DNA of 64,000 bases from Nitrospirae bacterium GWF2_44_13 (GCA_001805105.1 MHEE01000012.1:25590-89589), one strand, 5' to 3'; counted from the first letter of the stretch, positions 25,499-35,992 are shown. The notes: generated from the letters alone by a model not told the origin. Numbers and translations: made by a program.

Positions 25499-26086
25499 CT
25501 AATAATGTTTCTTTAGTTCAAGCAAAACCTGCTTGGCAACACCTTTCAGCGTCTCGAAAACCCCTACGCCGGTAGGCGCCACTCCCTCAAACCACTGCAC
25601 GCCGTTTACGTTGAGAAGTTTATTCATCTCTTCGACAGGGGCCACACGAGGAAGGTCTCTCTTGTTGTATTGCACTGCGTATGGCAGCTTTTCTACGGCA
25701 TAGCCCTGCTCCGCAAGATTTATCCTGAGATCATCCAAGCTCTCCATGTTAGCCTCCATCCTCTCTATCTGCGAATCGGCAACGAATATGACCCCATCCA
25801 CGCCCTTAAGAATTAATTTTCTGCTTGCCGCATAGAAGACCTGCCCCGGAACTGTATACAGATGGAACCTAACCTTGAACCCTCTTATGTCGCCAAGCGC
25901 CAGGGGAAGAAAGTCAAAGAACAGAGTTCTCTCACTCTCCGTAGCCAAAGATATAAGCTTGCCCTTCTGTTCAGGGTTTGTCTTCTTGTATATGAATTGA
26001 AGGTTTGTGGTCTTTCCACAAAGCCCCGGGCCGTAATATACAATTTTGCAATTGATTTCTCTGGAAGAATAATTTATAAAAGACAC
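25499..26086 (-). CDS. mglA: Ras-like small GTPase MglA
   Basis: Starts MSFINYSSREINCKIVYYGPGLCGKTTNL and contains LYTVPGQ and NKRD. It is near-colinear with Myxococcus MglA as I remember it. Confidence 0.93.
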   Translation of the reverse strand: MSFINYSSREINCKIVYYGPGLCGKTTNLQFIYKKTNPEQKGKLISLATESERTLFFDFLPLALGDIRGFKVRFHLYTVPGQVFYAASRKLILKGVDGVIFVADSQIERMEANMESLDDLRINLAEQGYAVEKLPYAVQYNKRDLPRVAPVEEMNKLLNVNGVQWFEGVAPTGVGVFETLKGVAKQVLLELKKHY

Positions 26087-26098
26087 TTATCGTTACAC

Positions 26099-26596
26099 CT
26101 ACTTGAAAAGATTATCAATATCCTCATCGCTTATCTCCGCAAAAGGCGAGTCTGCTGATTTGCCGCCTTCCACTTTTTCTTTTTCTGCCTTGCTCGCTAT
26201 TTCGTCAAATATTCTTGCAAGGGCTTCCGCGGCCTTTTTCACCCTGAGCCTTACAAGCCCGAGTGAAGACCTTTGGCCAAATATCACAACAAGTATAACT
26301 CTCTGTCCAATCAATGATATATGGATGTTGTCTTTTTCTCCTTCGTGGAAGAGGATAGTAAATTCCTTTTCTCCAAGAAGCCTTGCAATTCCCCCTGTGG
26401 CTGCAATATTGCCGGCTGTAAGCGATGCAAGGGATGTGGTATCAATATTGTGGGTATCTCCTGCAGAGGCTATAAGCTGGCCGTTTTTATCCACAAGGAA
26501 GACAACGTTTGCATTTGCCTGCTGGTGAAGTCTCTGGAGTTCCCCGTCAATCTTCTGGAACTCATTATCATGCATTACAAGGTCAGAACCGGCCAT
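26099..26596 (-). CDS. mglB: Roadblock/LC7 domain protein (MglB-like GAP)
   Basis: 165 aa with a Roadblock/LC7-like core, directly upstream of mglA in the same operon. Confidence 0.85.
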   Translation of the reverse strand: MAGSDLVMHDNEFQKIDGELQRLHQQANANVVFLVDKNGQLIASAGDTHNIDTTSLASLTAGNIAATGGIARLLGEKEFTILFHEGEKDNIHISLIGQRVILVVIFGQRSSLGLVRLRVKKAAEALARIFDEIASKAEKEKVEGGKSADSPFAEISDEDIDNLFK

Positions 26597-29959: not shown

Positions 29960-30199
29960 TCAGGCGCTTTTTCTATATCGCGTAGCGTACCAGTCAATAA
30001 CCTGTCTAATCATTTTTTGGTAGGAAGTATGATGTTTTTGCGCCTCCTTTTTAAAAAAATCAATACTCGCTTTTTTTAGGGCAATTGTCACCTTAATATT
30101 TTCTTCCTTCAGCACGAGTTGATCCGGAGGAGGCAGAAAATCATTAACAATCCTGAGATTGCCCATGGGTTCTTCGCTATATTTCATTTTGCTCTTCAT
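29960..30199 (-). CDS. brnA: BrnA-type antitoxin (CopG/RHH-like)
   Basis: PPPDQL...KVTIALK....DFFKKEA pattern typical of BrnA. The ATG at 30199 follows GGGAGGAAAA and overlaps the brnT 3' end. Confidence 0.75.
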   Translation of the reverse strand: MKSKMKYSEEPMGNLRIVNDFLPPPDQLVLKEENIKVTIALKKASIDFFKKEAQKHHTSYQKMIRQVIDWYATRYRKSA

Positions 30200-30461
30200 A
30201 TATTTTCCTCCCTTTTCTCCAATATCCCGCACCATAAATGCGGATAACATTACCTCTATACGTAAACCTCACGGTCATTATGCCCTCGCCGACCCTGCCG
30301 ATGCAGTAAAACCTTTCTTCCTCGGTACTATGGTTAATGTCTTCGACAATTACACGCATAGGGTCAAGAAAGGCATATTGAGCCAATGAAAAAGAGACAT
30401 TGTGCTTGGCATGGTTTTCCCTATCCTTCTCCTCGTCCCATTCGAAATGGGTCTTTTTCAT
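30177..30461 (-). CDS. brnT: BrnT-family toxin (DUF497)
   Basis: FEWDEEKDRENHAKHNVSF...DINHSTEEERFYCIGRV...IRIYGAGYW is the canonical DUF497 pattern. Confidence 0.85.
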   Translation of the reverse strand: MKKTHFEWDEEKDRENHAKHNVSFSLAQYAFLDPMRVIVEDINHSTEEERFYCIGRVGEGIMTVRFTYRGNVIRIYGAGYWRKGRKIYEEQNEI

Positions 30462-30936: not shown

Positions 30937-32223
30937 ATGCCCTTAAATAACAAGACAAGGATAAACAAAAAACTTGAATGGGGGAAATATGTATCCCCTC
31001 TCTCCGATAAAAATATTACCCCCTTCAACTGGTATTCATTCAAACACAGATTCGGCAGTGAGCTTGTCTCAAAGATATTTTTCATGTTTGGATTATCAGA
31101 AGGAGACTCGATTTTCGACCCCTATTGCGGCGGGGGCACGACCCTTATTAAATCAAAATTAGACGGATACAATGCAGTTGGCTTGGATATTTCCCCTTTT
31201 TCTACTTTCTTAACAAACACCTTAACAAAATCATATGACGCAAACAGATTAAACAAAGCATTAAAAAAAATTTCCCATAAAGTTAATTCAAAAGTTGATA
31301 TCCCAGATGTTGCTATTCTGCAAAAATCGTTTTCTGACAGAACATTGCAATATATTTACTCATTAAAAGATTCAATCAATTCATTATCTATGCCCGAGAG
31401 AGATTTTTTTCTTTTTTCCTTGTTGAGAATCTTGGATAGTGCAAGCAAAGCAAAAAAATCAGGAGGATTTCTTCGAATAACTGATCAAAAAAGGGTTCCG
31501 CTGGAAGTCGTTAAAAAAATGTTTGTTGATTCTTCTGAAAAACTCATGAGCGATATTAAGACCTTTAAATATACAGATACTTTTACCAAGGCGGTAATTG
31601 GTGACGCAAGAGATTATCCATATGAAGTGAAAGACAAGAAATATGATGCTATATTAACGTCACCACCATATCCGAACAGACACGACTATACACGGATATA
31701 TGAGCTAGAATTATTGGTTGGTTTTATAAAAGACAACAAATCTCTTAAAAACCTCCGGTACGAAACTTTAAGATCGCATGTAGAGGCCAAAGAGAAATAC
31801 AAAGCAGATGGCTATATTAGACCTATGCTGCTTGAGAAAAAGATAAAAGAGTTAAATAAGCGTGAGATGAATAATTCTAAAGTTATTTCAACAATCGATG
31901 GATATTTTGAAGATATGTACTTGTCTTTGAAAGAAATGGCCAATGTTTTAAAACCCGGCGGCCATATTGGGCTTGTTGTCAGCAATGTTCGCTTTGCGGG
32001 TGTTATGATTCCAGTTGATGAATTGCTGACACAAATAGGAACACAGGTAGGCTTAGAAAATGAGGGTATTTATGTTCTTCGATATAGAGGGAATAGCTCT
32101 CAGCAAATGGGCAGACATAAAAGAGAGCCAGCCCGAGAAAGTCTGATAGTCTGGGGAAAATTAAAAATATGCAACAAAAGAAAAAAACAACAAGCCAGCC
32201 TAAACAAATCGTTTACCTTTTAG
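30937..32223 (+). CDS. DNA methyltransferase (N6-adenine or N4-cytosine type, SPPY catalytic motif)
   Basis: AdoMet motif I IFDPYCGGGTTLI followed by GYNAVGLDISP. Catalytic motif IV ILTSPPYPNRHDY sits about 170 aa downstream, and LKPGGHIGLVVSN follows later. K/N/I-rich and AT-rich. Confidence 0.8.
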   Translation: MPLNNKTRINKKLEWGKYVSPLSDKNITPFNWYSFKHRFGSELVSKIFFMFGLSEGDSIFDPYCGGGTTLIKSKLDGYNAVGLDISPFSTFLTNTLTKSYDANRLNKALKKISHKVNSKVDIPDVAILQKSFSDRTLQYIYSLKDSINSLSMPERDFFLFSLLRILDSASKAKKSGGFLRITDQKRVPLEVVKKMFVDSSEKLMSDIKTFKYTDTFTKAVIGDARDYPYEVKDKKYDAILTSPPYPNRHDYTRIYELELLVGFIKDNKSLKNLRYETLRSHVEAKEKYKADGYIRPMLLEKKIKELNKREMNNSKVISTIDGYFEDMYLSLKEMANVLKPGGHIGLVVSNVRFAGVMIPVDELLTQIGTQVGLENEGIYVLRYRGNSSQQMGRHKREPARESLIVWGKLKICNKRKKQQASLNKSFTF

Positions 32224-33248
32224 GTGCAGGCGCAACACAAGCAGAGGTTGCCCATCAAGGAGTAAAAGTTAATCTTCTCATGCAGGGCATTTCTTCTCAT
32301 ATTTTAAAAAGGGCTAATACGGATAGGCATTTAAACCTAAAAGAAGAAGCTGATATTGAAAAATTAATAAGCCTACTTGCTGCAACTGGTATCGATAAAT
32401 ATAAACAAGAGGCAGAAAACTTAAGAGAGGCTTATTTCGCGGAGATACTGGACGGTTTGATTAACGCAGGCATATTAGATAATCCAGAGCTTGCTATGGG
32501 TCTATTTGAGATGCACAATAATGCACTATTTAAGAAAAAAACCGAAACGCTATCAGGAATCATTAGCTTAAACCATGATAACCTTTTTCAGGTTGCATCG
32601 CAAAACATTTATAAATGTATTAACCTTGGCTTTAAATTTGAGTCCGATTCCACTCATTTTTTGCCCGGAAGCAACAAAAAAGCACCACGCATAATACAAT
32701 TGCATGGTTCCTTTAATTGGCTGAATTCTTTACCTATAAAAGTTTCATTGCTAACGCGTCATAGCAAATATGATAAGGACATGCTGTGGATACCACCAAC
32801 CATTTTAAAAGAGTCAAAAGATTATCCATATAATAAGTTAATGGCATTAGCATATGAAATATTATTGAGGAAGTGCAACATTTTGAGAATTATAGGCTGC
32901 TCATTAAGTCAAAACGATTGGAATATTATTTCTCTTATATTTAACGCGCAATATAATCAATATCGCAATGATAACACTTGCTTTAAAATTGAATTGATAA
33001 TGGATGAAGATAAATGCCAGGAGATTATCAGGGAGTATTCATACTTAAAAAATATTTTCCCTATTAGCCAATTAAAAGATGGCAATTTTGATGAATACAA
33101 AAACTCCGATAAAATATCGAAAACGTCTGAACTTAACAATCCGTTTAAGTATTGGCTTAAAACGAAGGTTCAGTACCATCGGAATAAGGGCACATTTGAT
33201 GGTAAAAGCATAAGTAAAACTTTGAAAAAAATAATGGGAGCAAGGTAA
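32169..33248 (+). CDS. SIR2-like (SIR2_2/DHS-like NAD-binding fold) protein, putative NADase effector
   Basis: Ordered motifs YLLGAGATQ, SLNHDNLF, IIQLHGSFNW and LRIIGCSLSQNDWNI parallel the GAGxS / TNYD / HG / GxSxxD pattern of ThsA-type SIR2 domains. Overlaps the methyltransferase by 55 nt. Confidence 0.7.
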   Translation: MQQKKKTTSQPKQIVYLLGAGATQAEVAHQGVKVNLLMQGISSHILKRANTDRHLNLKEEADIEKLISLLAATGIDKYKQEAENLREAYFAEILDGLINAGILDNPELAMGLFEMHNNALFKKKTETLSGIISLNHDNLFQVASQNIYKCINLGFKFESDSTHFLPGSNKKAPRIIQLHGSFNWLNSLPIKVSLLTRHSKYDKDMLWIPPTILKESKDYPYNKLMALAYEILLRKCNILRIIGCSLSQNDWNIISLIFNAQYNQYRNDNTCFKIELIMDEDKCQEIIREYSYLKNIFPISQLKDGNFDEYKNSDKISKTSELNNPFKYWLKTKVQYHRNKGTFDGKSISKTLKKIMGAR

Positions 33249-34282
33249 TGAAAAGAAGGTTTGAAGAATGGCGCATAAATAAACTACTTGAATCGAGGGA
33301 GAATATTTCTTTTCCTGATTACCAAAGAGAACCTAAATTGTGGGGCTTGAAAGAAAAACAGTTATTAATAGATTCGATAATAATCGATATGGATATTCCT
33401 AAACTCTACTTTAACGAGATAAAAAAAGGCGACTATGAAGTGGTTGATGGGCAACAAAGATTATGGGCAATATGGGGATTTATTAACAATGAATATAAAT
33501 ATGAAATAGATGGTAAGAATAAATATTTTAACGAGCTGTCTTCGACTCTAAAGGAACACATACTTTCATATAGATTACAAATTACTATAATCACTAATGC
33601 ATCTGAGAAAGATTTAAGGGAACTTTTTTTAAGGTTGCAATTAGGCCTTCTTTTAATTACTGGAGAAAAGCTAAATGCGACAGTTGGTTTAATGAAAGAT
33701 TTTGTGTTTAAAAAGATGGTAAAACATTCTTTTATTAAATCAATCGCAATCCCGGAACGCAGATTTGCAAAACAAACATTATGCGCTCAAATTTGTATCA
33801 ATATATTTTCTAAGGAAAATATTAATGATTTCTCTCGTACACGATATGAAGATTTAAATTATTTTTTCAAAAACTATGAACATCTGCAAGGGGAAGAGTT
33901 GAAGCTGTTTGAAAACCTGTGCAAACACATTCTTGATGTTCTTGACACTCTAAATTTTTATTTTAAGGAAAAGGCTGAGTTGTTGAAAAACAGATCTTTT
34001 ATCCTCTCTGTATATTTATTTGTTGAAGAGATGACAAAAACTCACAGCAAGCAAGCATTAGATCTTGCAATGCCTAAGTTTATTGAATTTGCAATTACGC
34101 TCTTGGAGCGGTTAAGGTCTGAAGCCCAGGCAGGGTTCGACAGAAGAAATGAGGAATTATATATTTTTGAATCTTTCCTAAGCAATGCGCCTGGAGAGAA
34201 ATATCAAATTAAAAGAAGGCATGACAAATTAAAAGATTTCTTTAAATACTATCAAAAAACTGGCAAAATAAAGGGTGATTAA
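33248..34282 (+). CDS. DUF262 (ParB/Srx-like, GmrSD N-terminal type) protein lacking a DUF1524/HNH nuclease domain
   Basis: FPDYQREPKLW...LIDSI...IPKLYF...YEVVDGQQRL and LFLRLQLG motifs. I saw no His-Me/HNH motif in the C-terminal helical half. TAATG overlap with the SIR2-like gene. Confidence 0.85.
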   Translation: MKRRFEEWRINKLLESRENISFPDYQREPKLWGLKEKQLLIDSIIIDMDIPKLYFNEIKKGDYEVVDGQQRLWAIWGFINNEYKYEIDGKNKYFNELSSTLKEHILSYRLQITIITNASEKDLRELFLRLQLGLLLITGEKLNATVGLMKDFVFKKMVKHSFIKSIAIPERRFAKQTLCAQICINIFSKENINDFSRTRYEDLNYFFKNYEHLQGEELKLFENLCKHILDVLDTLNFYFKEKAELLKNRSFILSVYLFVEEMTKTHSKQALDLAMPKFIEFAITLLERLRSEAQAGFDRRNEELYIFESFLSNAPGEKYQIKRRHDKLKDFFKYYQKTGKIKGD

Positions 34283-34365
34283 TGGCTTAATCACTCGTTG
34301 CTCAACACTTTTGGGTCAGCATTTTATGAAAAAAATAGTAAAAAATTAGAAAAAATTAGGGAACA

Positions 34366-35393
34366 TGTACTAGCTCACTAATTCGGTAACTTTCTGGAGT
34401 TTATCAAAAGGTGTTTCATAGTTCAAGCCCCCATGTTTCCTCAGATGATTATATTCAAATAAAAAGTTCCCAAGATTCATGAGCAAGTCTTTCTCGGACT
34501 CGAATGAATTGGGATAAAAAAACTCGTTCTTAATTATCTTCCAGAATGCCTCTACTTTTCCATTTGTCTGAGGCCGGTAGGGCCTAGTGCATATGTGTTT
34601 TATTCCTAATTCAGCGCACATTGTCTCAAAAGGATGCTCCCGAGCAAGTGAGCCCTTAAATTCGGGACCATTGTCAGACAATATAGCTTCAAATTCAAAA
34701 TTATATATTTGTTTAAACCATGATAATGAACGAGCCATAAAGTATGTCAGGGTTGAGGCCTTTTTGTCTTTAACTATTTCGGCATAGACAAGTCTTGTGC
34801 AATCATCGCAGCATCCAGCAACATAGAGTTCTTTGATTTTAAACGAGCATCTTATATCTTTTGGGATCTTGGTCATATCTATATGGGCAAGCTCTCCGGG
34901 CGCCTGCTTTTCATAACGCTTTATTATTTGCTTCTGTGCCTCATTCAGAGGATAACGTGCCTTTATTCTGTCCATGGTGGCAGGAGAAGGTGTTTTATCC
35001 AGATAGTAAGGTTTAAAAAGAAGAACCAGTTCGTACCTGTTTGAACCAAATCTTCTGTAAGCTTTGATTATGTTTCGCTCTACCTCTTTAGGTGTCCGTC
35101 TTGAACCGGGTTTAGCTCCTCTTTTACTCGGCAGAAGTGATTCAGCCTTCTTTCCGCCTTCTATCCATTTGACATAGTACCGCCTGAGTTCTTTTGCGCT
35201 GATATGGTGCGCTTTACAAAGGTCTTTTACAAACCTGAATGGTCGAGGTGTAATTTTGGAACGCGTCCGCTCATATTCCTTTAAAATCGGCAGCCATCTT
35301 TTAAGAATAATTTGATACTCGTAATGCATAACAGCCCTCCTTTGGTTAATTTTTACTATACCAAAAGAGTTACCTAATTACTGAGCATGAACA
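34366..35393 (-). mobile_element. IS481-family insertion sequence (1028 bp) with 26-bp imperfect terminal inverted repeats
   Basis: Left end TGTACTAGCTCACTAATTCGGTAACT (34366-34391) matches the reverse complement of the right end TGTTCATGCTCAGTAATTAGGTAACT (35368-35393), with 21 of 26 positions identical. TGT termini and a single rve transposase ORF. Confidence 0.85.
34370..35329 (-). CDS. IS481-family transposase (HTH + rve/DDE integrase core)
   Basis: HIDMTKIP (D), SDNGPEFKG (D) and RPYRPQTNGKVEAFWKIIKNEF (E) motifs. The stop codon lies inside the left IR. Confidence 0.92.
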   Translation of the reverse strand: MHYEYQIILKRWLPILKEYERTRSKITPRPFRFVKDLCKAHHISAKELRRYYVKWIEGGKKAESLLPSKRGAKPGSRRTPKEVERNIIKAYRRFGSNRYELVLLFKPYYLDKTPSPATMDRIKARYPLNEAQKQIIKRYEKQAPGELAHIDMTKIPKDIRCSFKIKELYVAGCCDDCTRLVYAEIVKDKKASTLTYFMARSLSWFKQIYNFEFEAILSDNGPEFKGSLAREHPFETMCAELGIKHICTRPYRPQTNGKVEAFWKIIKNEFFYPNSFESEKDLLMNLGNFLFEYNHLRKHGGLNYETPFDKLQKVTELVS

Positions 35394-35472: not shown

Positions 35473-35733
35473 CTATTTCAAAGGTTCAATCTTTCTGGGG
35501 ATTTGATAGCTGGATGCCTGCTCCCATGCTTTCATGAGTTCATTTTGATGCATGGTTGCCCATTCCGTCACAAGACCCAGTGCCCGTGGCGGCAGGCTGC
35601 CGGTTAAAACCCCAAGCGTTTTTATTTCGATTAATGCCTCGGTTTCTCCGTAAACAGCGTGGAAATGCGGCGGGTTATGTTCTCTGAAGTAGATGAAAAT
35701 GACAATTCCGAAAAACCTGCTTATCTCAGGCAT
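35473..35733 (-). CDS. DUF4160 domain protein
   Basis: MPEISRFFGIVIFIYFREHNPPHFHAVYGE is the hallmark DUF4160 N-terminus. Confidence 0.85.
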   Translation of the reverse strand: MPEISRFFGIVIFIYFREHNPPHFHAVYGETEALIEIKTLGVLTGSLPPRALGLVTEWATMHQNELMKAWEQASSYQIPRKIEPLK

Positions 35734-35992
35734 GTGTCAGTTGGGCGGTGATTTTGGTTCCTGTTAATTCGGCATAAAGAGAATCCGGGCATAAATCAAT
35801 GCCGCCCGGCCATGCCACTGTATGACTCACGGGATCAATGAATGCAGCCTCAAAAACCGCGCGGTCTTTCCAAACTGAAAAAACACCCTTATCGGCAACA
35901 TCGGACAAATCAACAACGCCTTCAACGTTATCCGAAAATTTTATCCAAATCCGGAATCCTTCAAGTGTCTTTACATCGGTTATCTTATGCAT
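35726..35992 (-). CDS. DUF2442 domain protein
   Basis: Small beta-rich protein (ITDVKTLEGFRIWIKFSDN.EGVVDLS). 8-nt overlap with the DUF4160 partner, which is the typical pairing. Confidence 0.8.
   Translation of the reverse strand: MHKITDVKTLEGFRIWIKFSDNVEGVVDLSDVADKGVFSVWKDRAVFEAAFIDPVSHTVAWPGGIDLCPDSLYAELTGTKITAQLTHA

Follow-up and report, generated by a model that had tools for sequence, protein, structure and literature searches.

We analysed a stretch of 64,000 nucleotides (nt) from Nitrospirae bacterium GWF2_44_13 (GCA_001805105.1 MHEE01000012.1:25590-89589), below called the window; all positions are counted within it. The window carries an operon of three genes, coding for a DNA methyltransferase (methylase), a SIR2-like protein and a DUF262 protein. 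We lean towards the view that the three form a restriction-modification-like defence system, in which a metabolic effector replaces the endonuclease or, in some relatives, works alongside it. The components are of known kinds and the gene context appears to be undescribed: no description of the SIR2-DUF262 pair or of the three-gene unit was found in open-access papers and bioRxiv, and PADLOC v2 holds no specific model for the DUF262 or the SIR2 protein.

The genes are co-directional, in the order methylase, SIR2, DUF262, and they overlap or abut. The DUF262 ATG shares its first base with the end of the SIR2 stop codon, an overlap of 1 nt. The GC content of the operon is 31-37%, against 41-49% in the flanks. 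The parts of the operon are listed here (aa, amino acids; NTP, nucleoside triphosphate; NAD, nicotinamide adenine dinucleotide).

30937..32223, + strand: DNA methyltransferase, 428 aa, first gene of the operon; Pfam N6_N4_Mtase (PF01555) E 1.1e-10, PADLOC MTase_II PDLC03224 E 3e-72
32169..33248, + strand: SIR2-like protein, 359 aa, predicted NADase effector; Pfam SIR2_2 E 2.2e-4
33248..34282, + strand: DUF262 protein (ParB/Srx-like NTPase) of 344 aa, predicted to sense DNA or its modification in an NTP-dependent manner; Pfam GmrSD_N E 3.8e-13
33248..33883, + strand: DUF262 residues 1-212, ParB/DUF262 core and the first helices common to NsnA-like DUF262 proteins
33323-33343, + strand: QRxxxW motif of DUF262
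33446-33460, + strand: DGQQR motif of DUF262
33884..34279, + strand: DUF262 residues 213-344, clade-specific helical domain, basic and highly conserved

SIR2 and DUF262 are inherited as a pair

SIR2 and DUF262 are an obligate, translationally coupled and co-diverging gene pair. Gene context was scanned in one genome per species of bacteria and archaea, which gave 79 loci, 66 of them with a full-length relative of the window's DUF262 protein (30-63% identity). In 64 of these 66 a homologue of the window's SIR2 protein is encoded directly upstream, on the same strand. The two genes mostly overlap or abut: an overlap of 4 nt is the commonest arrangement, and others lie a few bases apart. The loci span Nitrospirota, Acidobacteriota, Proteobacteria, Spirochaetota, Verrucomicrobiota, Bacteroidota, Patescibacteria, Methanobacteriaceae and DPANN archaea. 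The reverse test gives the same picture: when a metagenome scan is seeded with an alignment of the SIR2 proteins, the next gene codes for DUF262 in 71/71 loci that have at least 300 nt downstream of SIR2. In viral contigs there are no close DUF262 relatives and no SIR2 neighbour, and on plasmids only distant DUF262 relatives are found.

Further, the two proteins change together. Across 60 loci the BLAST scores of SIR2 and of DUF262 against the window proteins are correlated with r = 0.99, while for the methylase r is 0.10, indicating that SIR2 and DUF262 are one co-inherited module and that the methylase is exchangeable. An earlier reading of the locus, made from the sequence only, had taken a nuclease-less DUF262 protein next to a SIR2 protein to suggest a sensor-only role. 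The link to SIR2 holds in nearly all relatives; the sensor-only role is one that we infer.

The catalytic motifs of the SIR2 protein are intact: GAGAT at residues 19-23 (32223-32237), N135-x-D137 (32571-32579) and H179-G180 (32703-32708). In an alignment of 58 sequences there is no variation at G19, A20, G21, T23, N135, D137 and G180, H179 is conserved to at least 90%, and 55 of the 58 orthologues match PF13289 (best E 1.9e-12). When a profile of the family is compared with the PDB, the SIR2-like structure 8w9l (E 4.7e-6) and DSR2 (E 0.0047) are matched; no significant match is made to Sir2-HerA (E 0.086) or ThsA (E 0.26).

SIR2 is a predicted NADase, though another use of NAD+ can be considered. 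The sirtuin fold allows hydrolysis and also ADP-ribosyl transfer, so SIR2 might modify a target (DNA with unmethylated sites, a phage protein or DUF262 itself) by ADP-ribosylation or otherwise, with DUF262 guiding it to DNA. That its partner is a DNA-associated ParB-like protein would suit this role, as would its distant relationship to the proven NADases (E 4.7e-6 for 8w9l, 0.0047 for DSR2, 0.26 for ThsA). However, to our knowledge every defence-type SIR2_2 protein tested (ThsA, DSR1/2, SIR2-HerA, SIR2-APAZ, Avs5) acts by NAD+ depletion, and no specific protein target is indicated by the locus. We therefore consider a modifying SIR2 very unlikely. NAD+ depletion by defence-type SIR2 proteins is described in bioRxiv 10.1101/2021.12.14.472415, and abstracts report it for several such proteins.

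A DUF262-SIR2 association of another kind is found on a plasmid of Sinorhizobium americanum (L085; NZ_CP013053.1, 3932-5834). Here a ThsA-like SIR2 gene (PADLOC ThsA, E 5.5e-26) stands behind a distant DUF262 gene (27% identity, 90% coverage). The gene order is reversed relative to the window, there is no annotated methylase in the vicinity, and the association of the two families is an independent one.

A methylase of one type accompanies the pair

The picture of the locus in the sequence-only reading was right about the pair and overlooked that the methylase upstream is integral to the system, as its third component. Of 63 SIR2-DUF262 pairs, 60 have a methylase no more than 3.5 kb away, usually adjacent to them and often in the same operon. 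As for the three pairs without one, two loci are cut by contig ends and one is visibly degraded.

In the window the methylase has motif I, IFDPYCGGG, at residues 59-67 (31111-31137) and motif IV, SPPY, at residues 242-245 (31660-31671). Among the linked methylases of more than 280 aa, 59 of 60 likewise have SPPY as motif IV, although these come in two architectures. The first, that of the window, is about 410-500 aa long and has motif I before motif IV. The second is of the beta class, about 335 aa long, has motif IV first and matches PDB 2zie (TTHA0409) at E 1e-108. In characterised enzymes motif IV is SPPY in N4-cytosine methylases and DPPY in adenine methylases such as CcrM (PMC10406627). 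From this motif the window methylase is predicted to be of the N4-cytosine type, that is, to make N4-methylcytosine; methylases with this product are found in systems of the XmaI and SmaI families (PMC1920265). Distant pairs of a DUF262 gene with a HEPN gene mostly have no neighbouring methylase, indicating that the link to a methylase is particular to the SIR2 clade.

It should be considered that the methylase may belong to a separate restriction-modification unit and provide no mark of self. SIR2-DUF262 would then be a Type IV or Dazbog-like abortive system, in which foreign modified DNA (5-methylcytosine, hydroxymethylcytosine or glucosylated cytosine) triggers SIR2. The DUF262 sensors that have been characterised all respond to modified DNA. 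Dazbog, an abortive system of two genes, has a phage cytosine methylase as its trigger (PMC10952713), and BrxU complements BREX in like manner. The methylase does not co-diverge with the SIR2-DUF262 pair, and the distant DUF262-HEPN pairs stand alone, without a methylase. However, the presence of a methylase within 3.5 kb of nearly all pairs, with SPPY in spite of unrelated lineages, exceeds the loose clustering of defence islands. Further, 46/64 loci have a methylase and none of the three endonuclease families described below, and in these loci the methylase would be an orphan without a role. We regard this alternative as unlikely and rank a methylase that provides a mark of self above it, because the alternative leaves the universal methylase of one type unexplained.

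In two related loci a LexA/CI-like regulator (HTH_3 and Peptidase_S24) is encoded directly upstream of the methylase (L001:3712-4341 and L035:3557-4216), and in a third (L021:2584-3189) a regulator from this cluster is encoded on the opposite strand, about 2.3 kb upstream. Such a regulator, which the window lacks, may put the unit under damage-responsive control.

The DUF262 protein is complete

As had been proposed from the sequence, positions 33248-34282 code for a DUF262 protein without DUF1524: the open reading frame (ORF) of 344 aa is full length and PF03235 is its only domain. The same applies to the 120 best relatives in the database, which are 332-365 aa long, cover 95-100% of the query and have PF03235 as their only domain. 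On the whole protein the Pfam GmrSD_N/DUF262 match lies above the gathering score. Truncation of the gene by the insertion sequence (IS) element downstream was considered and rejected, as the relatives are equally long and end in the same invariant G-D.

The earlier estimate that DUF262 signatures fill roughly the first 150 residues was correct in kind and too short in extent. Residues 1-149 alone match Pfam at E 2.6e-16, and DUF262 homology extends to about residue 212. In an alignment of 50 relatives the motifs Q26-R27...W32 and D67-G68-Q69-Q70-R71 show little or no variation, with D67, G68, Q70 and R71 strictly invariant. Conservation is not confined to this region: the mean column conservation is 0.684 in the N-terminal and 0.656 in the C-terminal half, with 29 and 26 invariant positions, respectively.

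An AlphaFold model of the whole protein has a pLDDT (predicted local distance difference test) of 89.3. In Foldseek its best PDB matches are BrxU (E 1.8e-3) and then ParB, Noc and KorB (E 4e-3 to 1e-2), all made through the N-terminal domain and all borderline, above the line of 1e-3. The TM-scores (template modelling scores) to ParB, Noc and KorB are low (0.2-0.4), and sulfiredoxin is matched more weakly still (E about 0.2 or more). The assignment of a ParB/Srx fold is thus mainly based on the DUF262 sequence match.

One profile match points elsewhere. The PADLOC model REase_II PDLC03418 (372 positions) is matched by residues 23-124 (33248-33620) at E 9e-9. This model is presumably built from REBASE entries, in which case at least one DUF262-type protein is listed there as a putative Type II restriction enzyme. 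The protein might be a nuclease through its ParB-like domain or, alternatively, a transcriptional regulator of the methylase operon like DndB, and in both cases not a sensor in defence. DndB acts as a repressor. A review lists it as a ParB-type NTPase of the Dnd system, and ParB-like domains have historically been annotated as nucleases (PMC3632139). However, a regulator fails to explain why the pairing with SIR2 is obligate, coupled and co-diverging while the methylase is exchanged; the DGQQR nucleotide-binding motif points to an NTPase, and the nuclease of GmrSD has been reassigned to DUF1524 (PMC4619093). We find both roles highly improbable.

The C-terminal half holds no detectable nuclease

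Residues 150-344 are rich in lysine (K 12.3%), glutamate (E 9.2%) and phenylalanine (F 10.3%), with an isoelectric point of 9.2, and the model is all-alpha, which agrees with the earlier description of a helical K/E/F-rich part of about 190 aa. A separate AlphaFold model of residues 118-344 has a pLDDT of 90.8 and a pTM (predicted TM-score) of 0.86. In the models there are only helices beyond residue 116, which excludes a beta-beta-alpha His-Me finger.

The sequence-only reading had also failed to spot an HNH or His-Me motif here. Neither these nor a cryptic DUF1524 emerged by sequence, by profile (Pfam, PADLOC, hhalign) or by fold (Foldseek). Residues 150-344 alone give no Pfam match at E <= 10 and no PADLOC match at E <= 1, and PDB sequence searches with phmmer and hmmsearch returned nothing usable. 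The best Foldseek match of the C-terminal model in the PDB has E 1.3; in BFVD the sole borderline match is an unnamed viral protein of 442 aa (E 0.026). Aligned by hhalign to BrxU from plasmid pEFER, the protein matches within residues 20-91 and nothing is aligned beyond 91. DUF1524 is in none of the eight window ORFs around the DUF262 gene that were scanned with Pfam. As far as these sequence and model comparisons can see, a cryptic DUF1524, HNH or PD-(D/E)xK domain in residues 150-344 is excluded.

The sole conserved histidine of the C-terminal half is H325 (90%). An all-alpha ribonuclease (RNase) of the HEPN kind was considered and rejected: the positions four to six residues before H325 are Y319, Q320 and I321, so there is no Rx4-6H motif, and there is no fold match.

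The boundary at residue 212 comes from a comparison with NsnA-like proteins, here DUF262 proteins encoded beside HEPN genes; these proteins match the NsnA model over its full length (E 3e-80). With hhalign the window protein is aligned to them across residues 22-212 at a probability of 99.5%, and a profile-profile comparison of the C-terminal half alone with the same proteins is not significant. From these alignments we conclude that residues up to about 212 represent the general DUF262 architecture and about 213-344 a basic, clade-specific helical domain. Within the latter R249, F281, E292, G296, R299, N301, L304, Y305, F307, P315, G316, E317, Q320, I321, R324, G343 and D344 are invariant, which makes it a candidate surface for binding of DNA or of SIR2.

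A profile of residues 118-344 has 415 matches at E <= 0.001 among 1.84 billion representative proteins. Among the best 150 of these the domain almost always stands behind a DUF262 core, in proteins of mostly about 330-430 aa, the shorter ones being fragments. Among the matches listed, one (P0266) has an HNH domain after the helical domain, and DUF1524 is in 0/10 of those scanned. In two-domain GmrSD proteins a helical linker of 200-400 residues frequently joins DUF262 and DUF1524 (Machnicka et al., PMC4619093). The equivalent part of NsnA, GmrSD, SspE and DndB has been termed a DNA-binding 'ParBDB' domain (Li et al., PMC12065111); as to whether the C-terminal domain corresponds to this or to the middle domain of GmrSD, homology to the NsnA-like proteins reaches residue 212 only.

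Endonucleases are optional

A Type II endonuclease is encoded in 18/64 related loci, usually between methylase and SIR2. The families are XhoI (PF04555), BsoBI (PF09194) and, in one case, XcyI-like (PF09571), which indicates that the module is placed inside Type II restriction-modification units. Loci with an endonuclease include L001, L024, L026, L028, L031, L034, L036, L040, L045 and L046, further L050, L051, L053, L055 and L065, and others. The prototype sites of the XhoI, BsoBI and XcyI families, which we take to be CTCGAG, CYCGRG and CCCGGG, are all subsets of CYCGRG, and this hints at a link between the module and a single family of sites.

The 3' end of the operon and the element behind it are the following.

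34270..34299, + strand: short inverted repeat over the DUF262 stop codon, from a repeat search; 13-nt arms, 85% complementary
34335..35359, - strand: IS481-like insertion element that bounds the operon and is outside the system; inverted repeats and transposase match

The inverted repeat may be the 3' end of the operon; it is not called by a terminator scan. The insertion element has inverted repeats at 34335-34353 and 35341-35359 and a transposase gene at 34370-35329 (-). The transposase matches NCBIfam IS481 at E 8.4e-53, under the curated cut-off, and also Pfam rve and rve_3. Only one copy is present in the window. That such an element directly follows DUF262 had been seen correctly, except that it starts about 52 nt after the stop codon and not 84 nt.

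The caution that the element could have displaced a fourth gene holds in part. Since an endonuclease is found in 18/64 loci, and no gene recurs downstream of DUF262, the element removed no obligatory fourth gene; nor do loci free of the element always carry an extra nuclease gene. An optional endonuclease could have been lost in the window lineage. In L002, whose methylase is the closest to that of the window (75% identity), a convergent BsoBI-family gene fragment lies 223 nt after DUF262, where the element sits in the window.

This arrangement leads to a further alternative, namely that the ancestral unit had four genes, a Type II methylase and a BsoBI-like endonuclease with SIR2-DUF262 as a back-up or guard, and that the window copy lost its endonuclease by the insertion and is a decayed remnant rather than a self-sufficient system of three genes. 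Besides L002, the locus L049 is arranged alike, and L009 also has an element, IS21, right behind DUF262. However, tblastn with the XhoI- and BsoBI-family proteins from related loci finds no endonuclease or endonuclease remnant in the window, and 46/64 loci from many phyla are without an XhoI-, BsoBI- or XcyI-family endonuclease. Within the methylase subgroup of the window (DPFCGGG-type motif I) L002 alone has an endonuclease; L011 continues into uvrC, and L009 has the IS21 element. All three window genes are intact, with conserved catalytic residues. Further, the identical DUF262 protein is on record in 23 metagenome or metagenome-assembled genome (MAG) contigs, and in 4/4 places shown of these 23 the gene order is the same, with an rve-type transposase gene just downstream. 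A decayed four-gene unit seems to us distinctly unlikely. DNA homology to L002 and to a 92%-identical contig (L080) ends at the DUF262 stop codon, and the ancestral downstream sequence was not recovered from them.

In one NCBI MAG (L082, GCA_003500245.1, 11036-12347) the transposase ORF has 294 aa as against 319 aa, and the genes downstream are displaced by about 120 nt. The difference may stem from the assembly or reflect a real variant.

Comparison with known systems

The closest DUF262 systems fall into two kinds. GmrSD, BrxU and SspE share with the window protein an N-terminal DUF262 NTPase domain, of predicted ParB/Srx fold in the window protein, with QRxxxW and DGQQR, and a helical region after the core (PMC4619093). 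They differ in having a DUF1524/His-Me nuclease, where the window has a separate SIR2 effector and its own methylase. Menshen NsnA, PD-T4-2_A and Dazbog DzbA resemble the window protein in build: a DUF262 core with a helical C-terminus, about 340-390 aa, and an effector in a neighbouring gene. Unlike the window, none of these systems has SIR2 and a methylase as partners. In PADLOC the window protein matches NsnA at E 4e-27 over residues 14-334 and PD-T4-2_A at E 1e-7. Of the 93.4 bits for NsnA, 87.6 come from residues 13-130 (E 2.5e-25), and residues 150-344 alone give no match. For Menshen there is no NsnB ABC-ATPase or NsnC gene at the locus, the neighbours being the methylase, SIR2 and the insertion element, and no ATPase gene recurs in the 66 related loci; for Dazbog no model named DzbA or DzbB is among the PADLOC matches of DUF262 or SIR2 at E <= 0.1. 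Dazbog is abortive and linked to DNA methylation (PMC10952713). DUF262 proteins without DUF1524 are already known from Menshen NsnA, Dazbog and PD-T4-2 (PMC10952713, PMC12065111), so the missing DUF1524 is not unusual in itself. As for ParB, Noc and KorB, the window protein has no Pfam ParB or helix-turn-helix match, and its motif is DGQQR, of the DUF262 type, not GERRxR.

The SIR2 protein has, like those of ThsA, DSR1/DSR2, SIR2-HerA and SIR2-APAZ/pAgo, a SIR2_2-type domain with GAGxT, NxD and HG. The similarity is remote, and in these systems the sensor is of the SLOG, HerA, Argonaute or tail-tube kind, whereas the window has DUF262 and a methylase. The Type II systems BsoBI/AvaI, XhoI and XcyI/XmaI share with it an N6_N4_Mtase with SPPY and, in 18/64 related loci, the endonuclease; in the window and in most relatives the obligate SIR2 and DUF262 stand in the restriction position instead. 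In logic the proposed system resembles SspABCD-SspE and Dnd, where a modification module is paired with a DUF262-family reader of that modification (PMC10952713). There the modification is phosphorothioation and the nickase is a fused DUF1524; in the window it would be base methylation, with SIR2 acting in trans.

Proposed mechanism

In the restriction-modification-like system that we favour, the methylase (predicted N4-methylcytosine) would mark the host's own DNA. DUF262, with its ParB-like NTPase and basic helical C-terminal domain, would read DNA, in particular the presence of the mark, and its NTP cycle would control SIR2, probably within a complex of the two proteins. Sensing of foreign DNA without the mark would release SIR2 to degrade NAD+, so that the infected cell and the phage stop growing (abortive infection). 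An SspE-like variant is conceivable, where binding of marked self DNA licenses the sensor. If the methylase is lost, the pair may act as an addiction module. NADase activity, sensing of DNA, the physical complex and the DNA state that acts as trigger are here what we infer from the genes. They have precedents: DUF262 senses DNA modification in GmrSD, SspE and probably Dazbog (PMC10952713; bioRxiv 10.1101/2022.08.27.505566).

A more specific version can be put forward tentatively, as a possibility rather than an expectation: the ParB-like NTPase, with its clade-specific helical domain, would read N4-methylcytosine at CYCGRG-type sites, and DNA without this mark would unleash the SIR2 NADase, giving a widespread class of methylation-gated abortive infection that is also addictive.

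Several observations weigh against such a mechanism. GmrSD and BrxU, and probably Dazbog, respond to modified and not to unmodified DNA. SIR2-DUF262 lineages exchange their methylases freely (r = 0.10), which is hard to reconcile with a sequence-specific reader, except if the sites of all these methylases are related, as only the prototype sites of the linked endonuclease families suggest. In family, PDB-sequence and fold searches the C-terminal domain of DUF262 has no detectable similarity to known DNA-binding domains, so its reading of DNA is assumed. The window SIR2 protein scores 21.8 bits against Pfam SIR2_2, under the cut-off of 24.5 bits. CYCGRG is not depleted in the window (29 sites against 35 +/- 6 expected), and a promoter scan finds no consensus sigma-70 promoter upstream of the methylase gene. 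Finally, where an endonuclease is present SIR2-DUF262 could be an accessory to it and not a replacement.

If the proposed mechanism is true, it unites methylation-based discrimination of self and non-self with NAD+ depletion by SIR2, which are usually treated apart. The operon would then be a compact three-gene model for how a DUF262/ParB-type NTPase converts a DNA-modification signal into activation of a separate effector, a question that Menshen, Dazbog and PD-T4-2 pose as well. It would also account for many apparently orphan N4-methylcytosine methylases. The module is present in bacteria, in lineages of the candidate phyla radiation and in archaea. As the methylases are of the N4-cytosine type and the endonuclease prototype sites lie within CYCGRG, the trigger is experimentally tractable.

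Neighbouring genes and related modules

The operon is flanked by a BrnT/BrnA toxin-antitoxin pair on one side and by the IS481-like element on the other. The pair is at 29960-30461 (-), directly upstream of the operon, and consists of a BrnT toxin (PF04365, E 5.7e-21) and a small downstream partner with weak resemblance to BrnA. Just past the insertion element, at 35473-35992 (-), there is an overlapping DUF4160/DUF2442 gene pair (E 6.6e-23 and 4.4e-13), which looks like a further small two-gene module at the edge of the island. At 25499-26596 (-) a Ras/Arf-like small GTPase is encoded beside a Roadblock/LC7 protein; this is an MglA/MglB-like pair, unrelated to the operon.

In four related loci a second DUF262-effector pair is found inside the SIR2-DUF262 unit (L005:10409-12279, L010:5022-6874, L012:4986-6712 and L025:183-1258). 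It consists of an NsnA/PD-T4-2_A-like DUF262 protein (about 346-385 aa) and a HEPN protein of the RiboL-PSP type, and it appears to share the single SPPY methylase. This suggests that RNase and NADase DUF262-effector modules are keyed to one modification. Stand-alone pairs of DUF262 and HEPN (RiboL-PSP) are common as well (L068-L079, for instance L070:7833-9646), most of them without an adjacent methylase. Their DUF262 protein matches NsnA over its full length (E 3e-80) and the HEPN partner matches no PADLOC model, so they may be another uncatalogued DUF262-effector system. On a Rhizobium plasmid (L086; NZ_CP072872.1, 1-8175) a DUF262 protein of 423 aa is encoded in an operon with an SNF2-related protein, a DNA methyltransferase and a DEAD/DEAH helicase.

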